Part shown: in pieces, positions 1,027 to 3,575 of the stretch
Layout of the letters: each line of letters begins with the position of its first letter
Position numbering within the stretch: position 1 is the first letter of the stretch
Virus record (IMG/VR): IMGVR_UViG_2541047936_000001
DNA from: a virus
Lineage: Duplodnaviria; Heunggongvirae; Uroviricota; Caudoviricetes
DNA length: 26,422 bases
Reading direction: 5' to 3' (one strand)
Program-made: the position numbers and the translations under genes
Notes under the pieces: model-generated
What the model saw: only the letters and a program-made list of their open reading frames with translations
The model's database searches: none
Told to the model about the DNA's origin: nothing

Positions 1027-1063
1027 CTTGGAATTACTTGGAATATTTTCTTGGAATATTTTC
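1027..1063. repeat. Three tandem copies of a ~13-bp motif (A)CTTGGAATATTTTC between the tRNA 3' end and the int stop, overlapping the last int codons
   Basis: cttggaatt / acttggaatattttc / ttggaatattttc read directly. Confidence 0.5.
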
Positions 1064-1931
1064 AGGTAACGGGACATCAAGTGTCGGTGAAACTTTAACC
1101 TTCCTGTCATAGATTAGCACTTGCCCCTCGGTTTTGTGACCAGAGAAAAGTTGCTTATCCCGACTGCTTCCTTCATAGTCTGAAATTCCTTTCGCCTTCA
1201 GATCATGAAAGGTGAAGTCGGTTAAAATACCTGAAATTTTGCCTGCGCGATTTCTTGCTTCTACCCACATTTCGTTAAAGCCTTTGTACATATATCGGTT
1301 GCCGTATTGATTGCTGATTACATAGGCGGATGTTGGTAACTGTTTTGCTTTTTCGATCGCCGCCTGTAATCGTGGACTCCATGCTTTTATCTGTTTTTTT
1401 CCTGTTTTCCCTTGCTGGATAAAGATCCCGTCGTTTCCAATCTGCTCCCATTTCAGCGATAACACATCGGAAACCCTCGCTGCACACAGATAGGCAATTT
1501 CCATTGCGATAAAAACAGGAAGAGGTGCAACGCTTAATACTGCCTGGTATTCTTTGTCGGTTACATATCGTTCGCGGTTTTTGGCCTTGAATTTACTTAC
1601 ACCTGCACATGGGTTACCCTTCACGTACCCTCGCTCATACCCCCAACTGTAAACGCGGGACATACTGCTTTTTTCATGGTTGGCTTGCGTTTTACTCTGC
1701 TCCCCTCTCTTGTCCATGTATCGACGGATGTGTTCTGGTTTTATGGAATCTGCCGGCACCTTACCGAATACGGCAAGCAACTTTTTTTGATGTTGCAGAT
1801 AATCTTTTTGTGTTCTTGGACTGAGGTCACTGTAATAGGCGCTGGCGAGGAATTTTTCCCACAAGCGACCGAATGTCTGAACCGCCCCGGGAATCCTGGA
1901 GACTAAACTTCCTGAGAAAGAGGTAAACAGG

Positions 1932-2258
1932 ATGACTAAAAATACTCGTTTTTCCCCCGAAGTCCGTCAACGGGCAGTCCGTATGGTTCTGGAAAGTCAG
2001 GATGAATATGACTCACAGTGGGCGGCAATTTGTTCCATTGCCCCAAAGATTGGCTGTACGCCGGAGACTCTGCGTGTCTGGGTTCGCCAGCATGAGCGGG
2101 ATACCGGGGGCGGTGATGGTGGGCTCACCAGCGCTGAACGTCAGCGTCTGAAAGAGCTGGAACGTGAAAATCGTGAACTGCGCCGCAGTAACGATATCCT
2201 TCGCCAGGCTTCCGCTTATTTTGCGAAGGCGGAGTTCGACCGCCTCTGGAAAAAATGA
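1932..2258 (+). CDS. IS629-like transposase OrfA (HTH)
   Basis: 108-aa [22 protein letters not shown]... recalled as IS629/IS1203 OrfA. Confidence 0.85.
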
Positions 2259-3145
2259 TGCCACTGCTGGATAAGCTGCGTGAGCAGTACGGGGTCGGAC
2301 CGGTATGCAGCGAACTGCATATTGCCCCGTCAACGTATTACCATTGTCAGCAACAGCGACATCATCCGGATAAACGCAGTGCCCGTGCGCAGCACGATGA
2401 CTGGCTGAAGAGAGAGATACAGCGCGTATACGATGAAAATCATCAGGTGTACGGTGTGCGTAAAGTCTGGCGTCAGTTGTTACGGGAAGGAATCAGGGTG
2501 GCCAGATGTACAGTGGCGCGCCTCATGGCGGTTATGGGACTTGCCGGTGTTCTCCGGGGTAAAAAGGTCCGTACGACCATCAGCCGGAAAGCCGTTGCCG
2601 CAGGCGACCGCGTAAACCGTCAGTTCGTGGCAGAACGACCTGACCAGCTGTGGGTGGCTGATTTTACTTACGTCAGCACATGGCGGGGCTTCGTCTATGT
2701 GGCGTTCATCATTGATGTGTTTGCCGGATACATCGTGGGGTGGCGGGTCTCATCGTCCATGGAAACGACATTCGTGCTGGATGCACTGGAGCAGGCGTTA
2801 TGGGCCCGTCGACCGTCCGGCACGGTCCATCACAGTGATAAAGGTTCTCAGTATGTATCGCTGGCCTACACACAGCGGCTTAAGGAAGCCGGATTACTGG
2901 CATCAACAGGAAGTACAGGCGACTCGTATGACAACGCGATGGCGGAGAGCATCAATGGTCTTTACAAAGCGGAGGTAATACACCGTAAGAGCTGGAAAAA
3001 CCGTGCAGAAGTGGAACTGGCCACACTCACGTGGGTGGACTGGTATAACAATCGACGATTGCTGGAAAGGCTGGGCCATACTCCTCCGGCAGAAGCAGAA
3101 AAAGCTTATTATGCTTCCATCGGAAACGATGATCTGGCAGCCTGA
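2255..3145 (+). CDS. IS629-like transposase OrfB (DDE catalytic domain); overlaps orfA, normally expressed as OrfAB by frameshifting
   Basis: 296-aa ORF; ATGA overlap with orfA; A-rich tract at the overlap. Confidence 0.85.
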
Positions 3146-3371
3146 GTTCACAGATAAAACACTCTCCAGGAAACCCGGGGCGGTTCAGTCATTGCACGAT
3201 CGCGATTATTTACAGTTTCCTCATACTTTTTCCATAAAGCAGCTAAACCATCCTTGATGGCGGTTAGTGTTACAGATTCTCTGGATGTTGGTTTCCATAC
3301 ATAACTATATTTATTTGGGTATACATTTGGAGGTAATTTTTCGTGTTCAGGATTTTTCCTTCGTCTTCCCA

Positions 3372-3575
3372 TCAGATCGCACCAAAATTCGGCTCTACCT
3401 CGCGTGGTGGTAAAGTTTTATTGCAGGTAAATAGCTCCCGGCTGACAATCGGTTTGCCACTACGATTGGTATAGAACGGAAGCCCGTTTTCCATTAACCA
3501 TTTTCGCTGGTGGCTTGCATATTTGCAGCCCGTTAATATTAGCAATTCATCTTCGGTTAAAAATAAGCTGCTCAT
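3372..3575 (-). CDS. Small excisionase-like protein (DUF4224-type) immediately upstream of int
   Basis: 67-aa ORF LTEDELLILTGCKYASHQRKWLMENGLPFY; 1-nt overlap with int start; Xis position. Confidence 0.55.
   Translation of the reverse strand: MSSLFLTEDELLILTGCKYASHQRKWLMENGLPFYTNRSGKPIVSRELFTCNKTLPPREVEPNFGAI

Follow-up and report, generated by a model that had tools for sequence, protein, structure and literature searches.

The serU locus and its interrupted integrase gene

We analyzed a stretch of viral DNA of 26,422 nucleotides (IMG/VR record IMGVR_UViG_2541047936_000001), referred to here as the window. The element that it carries appears to be a lambda-like prophage of the DicB/Qin type, integrated at serU. 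The serU gene, which encodes tRNA-Ser(CGA), lies at positions 892 to 981 on the plus strand and forms attL; homology to the empty K-12 site ends at position 981. This empty site and the mtfA-serU arrangement confirm the original prediction that the prophage resides at serU. The window holds attL only; attR lies beyond it, with the att repeat expected about 4 kb past the window end. In the IS-free relative MEI003, a 31-nt repeat of the serU 3' end (ACCGGGGGTTCAAATCCCCCTCTCTCCGCCA) was found at attR. This repeat, together with the occurrence of the element at serU in many strains, suggests integration and excision activity at the att sites.

Three direct CTTGGAAT repeats at positions 1027 to 1061 overlap the last codons of the integrase gene (int). 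Counting of this 8-mer across the 65-kb MEI003 region revealed five occurrences: three next to attL and two at 70 to 140 bp inside attR. The repeats are arm-site-like and confined to the att-proximal arms, making them candidate arm-type sites; the three in the window are candidate P'-arm integrase-binding sites.

The integrase gene is on the minus strand, with its ATG at 3372 to 3370 and its stop codon at 1036 to 1034, and it is interrupted by an insertion sequence (IS). The 5' piece (3188 to 3372) comprises codons 1 to 61 and two nucleotides of codon 62, and the 3' piece (1034 to 1877) comprises codons 62 to 341 and the stop codon. Joined, they give 1,026 nt, encoding 341 amino acids plus the stop. 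The 5' piece now reads into the IS, generating a 74-amino-acid open reading frame (ORF; 3148 to 3372) made up of 61 integrase residues and a 13-residue IS-derived tail. The only start codon available within the 3' piece is an internal TTG at position 1864. Upstream of int is an intact DUF4224 gene (3372 to 3575, minus strand; Pfam PF13986, 1.7e-15), the stop codon of which overlaps the int ATG. Its product matches the MEI003 protein at 100% identity, and its position suggests that it may be the excisionase.

The IS629/IS1203-group element and its target site

The interrupting element (1878 to 3187, plus strand) is a complete IS3-family insertion sequence of 1,310 bp, of a type common in E. coli. 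Its termini are TGAACCGCCCCGGG... and ...CCCGGGGCGGTTCA, with TG at the start and CA at the end, and its terminal inverted repeats (1878 to 1902 and 3163 to 3187) match at 14 of the first 14 positions and at 23 of 25 overall. Within the window, the 25-nt end sequence is restricted to these two termini, with no occurrence expected by chance. The element contains orfA (1932 to 2258, plus strand; 108 amino acids; HTH_Tnp_1, PF01527, E = 1.7e-12) and, in the -1 frame relative to it, orfB (2255 to 3145, plus strand; 296 amino acids), which encodes the DDE/rve transposase core (Pfam rve, 7.7e-28, with HTH_21 and rve_3). An ALIL pseudoknot (Rfam RF01497), which stimulates -1 frameshifting in IS3-family elements, lies across the A-run at the orfA/orfB overlap (2213 to 2329, plus strand); it was matched over its full length (1 to 117) at 121.5 bits (gathering score, 50). 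The two ORFs are predicted to be joined by programmed -1 frameshifting, as is characteristic of the IS3 family, and the equivalent orfA/orfB layout in strain 95NR1 is annotated as one transposase produced via a programmed frameshift.

Group membership was judged by at least 95% nucleotide identity to a named isoform, and the reference was the element that PGAP annotates as IS1203 in the O111 strain 95NR1. The window's copy differs from it by 32 mismatches over 1,310 bp (97.6% identity). Copies with 100% identity to it are present on many E. coli chromosomes and plasmids and on one Salmonella plasmid, and this sequence subtype carries only the PGAP label "IS3 family transposase." With IS629 and its isoforms IS1203 and IS3411, the element shares the 1,310-bp length, the TG...CA ends with imperfect terminal inverted repeats, the 108-amino-acid orfA and 296-amino-acid orfB in the -1 frame, the A-run, the ALIL pseudoknot, the 3-bp target duplication, and the location in a prophage; there is no substantive difference in the window's copy. 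The original description of the element as IS629-like therefore holds, as its length, ends, ORFs, duplication, and isoform identity all fit a member of the IS629/IS1203/IS3411 group. Target duplications of IS629 are reported to be 3 to 4 bp, and 62% of IS629 copies sit in prophages (PMC3271280). Judged from its sequence, the copy is active-looking.

The element is flanked by two copies of GTC, at 1875 to 1877 and at 3188 to 3190. A single GTC is present at the matching position in IS-free alleles, and when MEI003 was compared with the window by blastn, the two flanks overlapped by exactly these 3 nt. Positions 800 to 1877 joined to 3191 to 3700 form an exact substring of the genomes of strains SLK172 and MEI003, with zero substitutions in the flanks relative to the IS-free alleles. 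This identity bears out the earlier claim that the integrase had been cleanly split by an element with intact inverted repeats and a 3-bp GTC duplication. It also had been pointed out that the integrase halves rejoin in frame, which they do. However, a 3-bp duplication preserves the frame with 0, 1, or 2 copies of GTC removed, and in-frame rejoining is little proof by itself; the decisive support is the identity to the IS-free alleles, not the frame.

Domain architecture of the reconstructed integrase

Residues 1 to 313 of the reconstructed integrase aligned with residues 1 to 338 of lambda Int, placing T62 opposite T75 of lambda. Full-length lambda Int provided the best fold matches (E = 7e-15), and the 3' piece aligned with 1Z19 and 1P7D, crystal structures of a lambda Int fragment covering residues 75 to 356. 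An AlphaFold model (pLDDT 87), made on the 99% identical protein P0001 in place of the reconstructed protein, contained strands at residues 17 to 19, 23 to 26, and 34 to 38, a helix at 39 to 58, coil at 59 to 62, and a further helix at 63 to 71. The Pfam Phage_integrase (43.8 bits; cut-off, 27.1), Phage_int_M, and SAM-like domains all start at residue 62. The match of the first 62 residues to Pfam Arm-DNA-bind_1 was below threshold (E = 0.012; 16.1 bits against a cut-off of 22) and was dropped as a basis for assigning an arm-binding domain; the assignment comes from the lambda Int alignment and the structure model. Together, these predict a separate N-terminal arm-type DNA-binding domain (three strands and a helix, residues 17 to 58), which would be encoded by the 5' piece. 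The IS sits in the predicted four-residue linker that separates this domain from the core-binding and catalytic domains encoded by the 3' piece.

Catalytic-type residues were located at R195, K218, H285, K288, H308, and Y317. As far as catalysis can be read from the sequence, R195, K218, H285, H308, and Y317 are conserved, and the second Arg of the HxxR motif, equivalent to the catalytic Arg311 of lambda Int, is replaced by Lys (K288). Because this Lys is invariant in 92 sequences and also is present in the isolated phage mEp390, K288 is, on this alignment, a family trait and not a lesion. ON470580 and ON470583 encode a 99% identical integrase and were considered as proof that it works in a live phage. 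ON470580, the one of the two that was examined, was rejected: it is a "partial genome" with chromosomal flanks (serU, mtfA, and ybt genes) and so represents prophage DNA, not the genome of a virion. The occurrence of Lys for Arg in an isolated phage was instead documented with mEp390 (48% identity).

The reconstructed 341-residue protein is identical to the integrase called in seven of ten related loci. The prediction of one split integrase had named alignment to intact homologues as its check, and the reconstructed protein aligned from end to end with 91 homologues, including 341-residue proteins ending in ...YSK, as well as with lambda Int in both sequence and fold.

Excision, decay, and relationship to known systems

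The integrase is not the only damaged gene. A remnant of the small terminase gene (24698 to 24779, plus strand; the first ~27 codons) marks the left edge of a 20,374-bp deletion relative to MEI003. The deletion, at 24779|24780, has removed the packaging, head, and tail genes, accounting for the morphogenesis genes that the original prediction described as missing. The DUF968 gene is frameshifted. The prophage thus is decaying, with at least three lesions: the int insertion, the 20.4-kb morphogenesis deletion, and the DUF968 frameshift. Loss of the head and tail genes blocks virion formation, not excision.

None of 5,426 complete E. coli genomes contained the left junction of the IS insertion, and the 30-nt junction pattern was not found in GTDB representative genomes or in metagenome contigs. 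Exact look-ups of the 74-residue N-terminal fusion ORF and the 276-residue C-terminal ORF returned no record, nor did that of the 45-residue ORF at the deletion junction. The IS is identical to its other copies and the flanks are unsubstituted; because of this zero divergence, and because the junction was absent everywhere searched, the insertion looks recent and private to the strain. The earlier proposal of a recent insertion is upheld on the same grounds.

Lambda Int requires its N-terminal domain for arm-dependent recombination, and in lambda-type excision one Int protomer must bridge arm and core sites. In the account that we consider highly probable, an IS629/IS1203-group element would have transposed into codon 62 of the integrase of the serU prophage, duplicating the target GTC, in a recent event private to the strain and in a prophage that is decaying. 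The arm-binding N-domain would no longer share a polypeptide with the core-binding and catalytic domains, and the prophage's own integrase would be unable to excise it. Since a single protomer must bridge both types of site, this integrase should be nonfunctional for excision, and it is reasonable to infer that the prophage is locked at serU.

A rival reading is that there was no working gene to interrupt. PGAP labels the identical IS-free allele "tyrosine-type recombinase/integrase, frameshifted" in SLK172, MEI003, and 95-3192, over a span of 1,051 nt that runs 25 nt beyond the 341-codon stop, as would be expected if a 3'-end frameshift had already made the integrase a pseudogene and the IS had landed in dead DNA, changing nothing. 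We regard this as improbable. The 341-residue reading ends in ...PENIPRKYSK, and the ...YSK end and a length of 341 to 346 residues recur in homologues from E. albertii, Siccibacter, and Salmonella, down to the ~61% identity of the Salmonella protein. The discrepancy is a 13-nt tandem unit that is present in two copies here (341 amino acids) and in three copies in two of the loci, L011 and L014 (360 amino acids). All of the 3'-end differences fall after the catalytic Tyr317, and a second gene caller found the 341-residue protein in seven of ten loci. The label was rejected as evidence of earlier inactivation on the basis of the homologue alignment and the variation in repeat copy number. Because the 341-residue ...YSK end is conserved and the "frameshifted" label could be traced to the 13-nt repeat, the integrase most likely was intact before the insertion, and the NCBI label on the intact allele is likely false.

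A very different reading is that the split itself is functional: the N-domain (61 residues and the 13-residue tail), expressed with the DUF4224 protein, would occupy arm sites and, for example, hinder related phages from integrating or excising; alternatively, the C-terminal fragment would serve as an arm-independent recombinase or topoisomerase. In favor, the break falls at a domain boundary, the upstream ORF still begins at its native start and remains translationally coupled to the DUF4224 gene, and isolated fragments of lambda Int fold and keep partial activities. In addition, in the O111 strains 95NR1 and 95JB1 there is a second, independent IS1203 insertion 12 bp away, in the same orientation but of a different isoform. 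Yet the allele is private, with no hint of selection or spread; the C-terminal fragment has neither a promoter nor a good start and has 1.3 kb of antisense IS upstream; and other serU prophages carry IS elements at differing int positions with adjacent deletions, a pattern of random decay. A functional split is, in our view, very improbable. We give equally little credence to the proposal that the int linker (codons ~58 to 66) is a preferred landing site of the IS629 family and that the N-domain is kept as an arm-site blocker of related serU phages, providing exclusion or anti-excision. The evidence for an insertion hot spot was too thin, since the other IS insertions in int lie elsewhere and are accompanied by deletions.

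The more serious challenge concerns the lock. The prophage might still be mobilized, either by precise removal of the IS through its transposase and the IS-excision enhancer (IEE) or by Int supplied in trans from a coresident or superinfecting phage that has this type of integrase. IEE promotes the excision of IS629, making its insertions reversible, and is found in more than 30% of E. coli genomes (PMC9943667); in O121 strains, lacZ function was regained through IEE-mediated IS excision (PMC9397093). The window's copy has all of its ends, ORFs, and frameshift signal intact, as are the DUF4224 gene in the excisionase position (100%) and the candidate att arm sites. Defective O157 prophages have been excised, and even packaged, with interprophage help (PMC2669165). 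On the other hand, neither iee nor a second integrase of the same type is present within the window, a phage that shares this integrase would be competing for serU as well, and an excised element still would be without terminase, head, and tail genes. We consider such mobilization unlikely, although clearly less so than either an earlier pseudogene or a functional split, and retain the reading in which excision by the prophage's own integrase would have been lost.

With int disrupted, DUF968 frameshifted, and the head and tail genes deleted, the serU prophage is defective. The locus offers a clean, datable example of an IS immobilizing a prophage, with the break exactly between two protein domains. 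For annotation, it means that the two "partial integrase" pieces belong to a single gene that was interrupted recently, and the junction, which no other searched genome contained, could act as a strain-specific marker.

The integrase resembles that of lambda (PDB 1Z1B, 1Z1G, and 5J0N) in its three-domain layout and its conserved MGRRR...LPPN.Y N terminus, and lambda Int is the best full-length match to it in both sequence and fold. Both systems have a small gene in the excisionase position upstream, overlapping the int start, and repeated candidate arm sites on either side of the core. They differ in that sequence identity is only ~20%, Arg311 of lambda is an invariant Lys in the window's integrase family, a DUF4224 protein takes the place of Xis, and the prophage lies at the serU tRNA gene, whereas lambda integrates at attB between gal and bio.

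IS inactivation of a prophage integrase is an ordinary and already well-known route to stuck prophages, a form of routine decay. Disrupted integrases are a recognized defect in O157 prophages, and the defective lambdoid prophages Sp3, Sp11, and Sp12 of O157 Sakai likewise combine integrase disruption with further lesions (PMC2669165). The serU prophages of 95NR1/95JB1, Z1323PEC0008, and the O55:H7 strain DEC5E have IS629-family elements in or adjoining the same integrase. Compared with the Sakai prophages and these IS-truncated serU prophages, the insertion in the window is simple, with no adjacent deletion, and its site is unique among the genomes searched.

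An IS629-like element in the integrase gene

The tyrosine-recombinase gene (int) of the serU prophage (1034-3372, minus strand) is interrupted by a 1310-bp IS element (1878-3187) with TG...CA ends. As the original prediction held, the terminal inverted repeats of this element are intact, matching at 14/14 positions and then at 23/25, and the 25-nt end sequence is found in the window only at the two element ends, with none expected by chance. The element encodes a 108-aa HTH protein (orfA; 1932-2258) and, in the -1 frame, a 296-aa rve/DDE protein (orfB; 2255-3145). A full-length ALIL pseudoknot, the frameshift stimulator of the IS3 family, spans the orfA/orfB overlap (2213-2329; 121.5 bits against a gathering score of 50). 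Judged from its sequence, the element has all the features required for IS activity intact. Copies that are 100% identical occur in E. coli, on many chromosomes and plasmids, and on one Salmonella plasmid, whereas the annotated IS1203 of O111 strain 95NR1 shows 32 differences over the 1310 bp. IS629, of which IS1203 and IS3411 are isoforms, has subtypes that are 4-5% apart and generates target duplications of 3-4 bp; 62% of its copies are located in prophages (PMC3271280). "IS629-like" is a fair name because of this isoform and subtype spread, together with the 3-4 bp duplications.

GTC lies on either side of the element, at 1875-1877 and 3188-3190. When 800-1877 is joined to 3191-3700, the product is an exact substring of two IS-free E. 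coli relatives, SLK172 and MEI003, which supports the interpretation of a clean insertion splitting int. Both flanks were matched at 100% in at least 18 genomes, among those listed. In a blastn comparison with MEI003, the two flanks overlapped by exactly the 3 duplicated bases, bearing out the predicted perfect 3-bp GTC target duplication. The in-frame rejoining of the two int halves also had been cited; this is true but is weak as proof, because with a 3-bp duplication the frame is kept whether zero, one, or two copies are removed. It is the sequence comparison with IS-free alleles that is decisive for a clean insertion.

The insertion was also proposed to be recent, and the data agree: the flanks carry zero substitutions relative to the IS-free alleles, the IS matches other copies at every position, and the left junction was absent from the 5,426 complete E. 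coli genomes searched. The junction likewise was absent from the GTDB representative genomes and metagenome contigs searched, and look-ups of three junction-specific ORFs found none on record.

The reconstructed integrase

At 1026 nt, the joined int gene codes for 341 aa. Of the 10 loci that share the neighbouring exonuclease, 7 have a called 341-aa integrase identical to the reconstructed protein, which, as anticipated for a correct reconstruction, also aligns over its whole length with homologues of 341-346 aa. Its C-terminal ...YSK recurs in homologues with as little as about 61% identity (in E. albertii, Siccibacter, and Salmonella). We considered whether int had been inactivated before the IS arrived, since in three genomes (SLK172, MEI003, and 95-3192) the IS-free allele carries the label "frameshifted" from the NCBI pipeline, and the annotated span of the IS-free gene extends 25 nt beyond the 341-aa stop, in another frame. 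This label was traced to a 13-nt tandem unit, AAAATATTCCAAG (coding strand; minus strand of the window), at the 3' end of int (window 1036-1061). The window int has two copies of the unit, giving a 341-aa product ending in PRKYSK, and two related loci, L011 and L014 (9740-9790), have three, giving a 360-aa Int. The repeat changes all fall 3' of the catalytic tyrosine, and distant relatives keep the two-copy ending; prior inactivation was therefore rejected as unlikely, and int most likely was intact at the time of IS arrival.

A phmmer alignment paired Int residues 1-313 with residues 1-338 of lambda Int and placed T62 opposite lambda T75; residues 75-356 of lambda Int form the fragment in the core-bound crystal structures 1Z19 and 1P7D. 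The AlphaFold model of P0001, a homologue 99% identical to the reconstructed Int, has a mean pLDDT of 87; in it, residues 17-58 form three strands and one helix, residues 59-62 a coil, and residues 63-71 the helix that opens the next domain. Among PDB structures, this model matched full-length lambda Int best (E 7e-15). Taken together, the alignment, the crystal fragment limits, and the model place the IS in the predicted linker that joins the arm-binding domain to the core-binding and catalytic domains. In its present state, the upstream piece of int continues into IS sequence, forming a 74-aa ORF (3148-3372), and the sole start of the downstream piece is an internal TTG at 1864. Int resembles lambda Int in its MGRRR...LPPN.Y N terminus, which is included in the alignment, and in the full-length fold match, but it differs in having Lys (K288; motif TFHDLKAKGISD; window ~1195-1197, minus strand) in place of the catalytic Arg311. 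This Lys is invariant in 92/92 aligned members, and its equivalent also is present in the isolated phage mEp390; across the aligned members, the replacement is a family trait and not a lesion.

Just inside attL, between serU and the end of int, the 8-mer CTTGGAAT is present as three direct repeats (starts 1027, 1037, and 1050; span 1027-1061). Only five copies are present in the 65-kb MEI003 region, three of them the equivalents of the window copies and the remaining two located 70-140 bp inside attR. This arrangement is the layout of the lambda P' and P arm sites and suggests that the repeats are candidate arm-type integrase-binding sites (P'1-3 and P1/P2). Lambda Int is established to need its N-domain and catalytic domains within a single polypeptide. 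If the arm-site assignment is right, recombination here would have the same requirement, and the IS would prevent these domains from sharing one chain. By analogy with lambda Int, we infer that the IS would block arm-dependent recombination.

The serU site and the remainder of the prophage

At the left end, mtfA (about 4-798, minus strand; 99% identical to MEI003 MtfA) is followed by the tRNA-Ser(CGA) gene serU (892-981, from tRNA gene calls), the same order as at the empty site of E. coli K-12. Identity with K-12 ends at position 981, the exact tRNA 3' end. Relative to K-12, serU has G for A at position 939 and C for T at position 950, a compensatory pair in the variable arm. The attR of MEI003 has K-12-type bases at both positions, which argues that the 3' ~62 nt of the attL tRNA are phage supplied and places the crossover in serU near the anticodon stem-loop.

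The IS-free MEI003 prophage is 99.8% identical to that of the window, is bounded by a 31-nt att repeat (about 48.6 kb), and has a complete lambda-like module for packaging, head, and tail. Past its tail-fibre genes are the type III effector genes nleB2, an nleC fragment, nleH, and nleF (locus L006, 10323-13480), a region corresponding to sequence beyond the right end of the window; from these genes, the window prophage probably belongs to the effector-carrying lambdoid group. Compared with MEI003, 20,374 bp are deleted at the junction 24779|24780, in agreement with the predicted absence of morphogenesis genes. Of the small-terminase gene, about 27 codons remain before the cut at 24779, where it is joined to sequence lying just upstream of the tail-fibre gene. 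Microhomology at the junction amounts to only a few bases, no IS is present there, and the junction was not found in the complete E. coli genomes searched. From the DUF4224 gene (3372-3575, minus strand) to the lysis cassette, nearly all genes are intact and 98-100% identical to those of MEI003. The exception is the DUF968 (YdfU-like) gene (15032-16082), in which one extra A at 15609, an expansion of an A run, causes a frameshift that yields two ORFs; the MEI003 gene is intact (349 aa). Three tRNA genes at 17351-17600, downstream of the Q antiterminator, were called by ARAGORN as Met(CAT), Arg(TCG), and Arg(TCT), the first being annotated as tRNA-Ile in MEI003. This arrangement matches the ileZ-argN-argO cluster of lambdoid prophages.

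That the prophage is locked at serU is plausible. The loss of morphogenesis genes blocks virion formation, not excision, and attR lies beyond the window end. IS629 insertions can be removed by transposase together with an IS-excision enhancer that over 30% of E. coli carry (PMC9943667), and IS excision with the enhancer restored gene function elsewhere (PMC9397093). Excision and packaging of defective O157 prophages also are possible with help from others (PMC2669165).

Comparison with other prophages

A "phage" record with a 99% identical integrase, ON470580.1, is a partial genome. It contains chromosomal serU, mtfA, asnT, and yersiniabactin genes; it was rejected as a packaged phage genome and represents a prophage region with host flanks.

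Integrase disruption is a recognised defect of the O157 prophages Sp3, Sp11, and Sp12 (PMC2669165). In the O111 strains 95NR1 (locus L001, 4091-5400) and 95JB1, IS1203 lies in the same integrase, 12 bp away, and shares the orientation of the element here; its target duplication is the 4-bp ATCG. In Z1323PEC0008 and O55:H7 DEC5E, an IS is accompanied by an adjacent deletion that removes the 5' half of int along with genes downstream, and in 95-3192, an IS interrupts the neighbouring exonuclease gene. In all of these serU-prophage insertions (loci L001, L017, L018, and L019), the transposase is on the strand opposite int. The IS629-family insertions at the left end of the serU prophage in other strains are independent events, and together they follow the ordinary pattern of IS-driven prophage decay, with nothing outside known biology.
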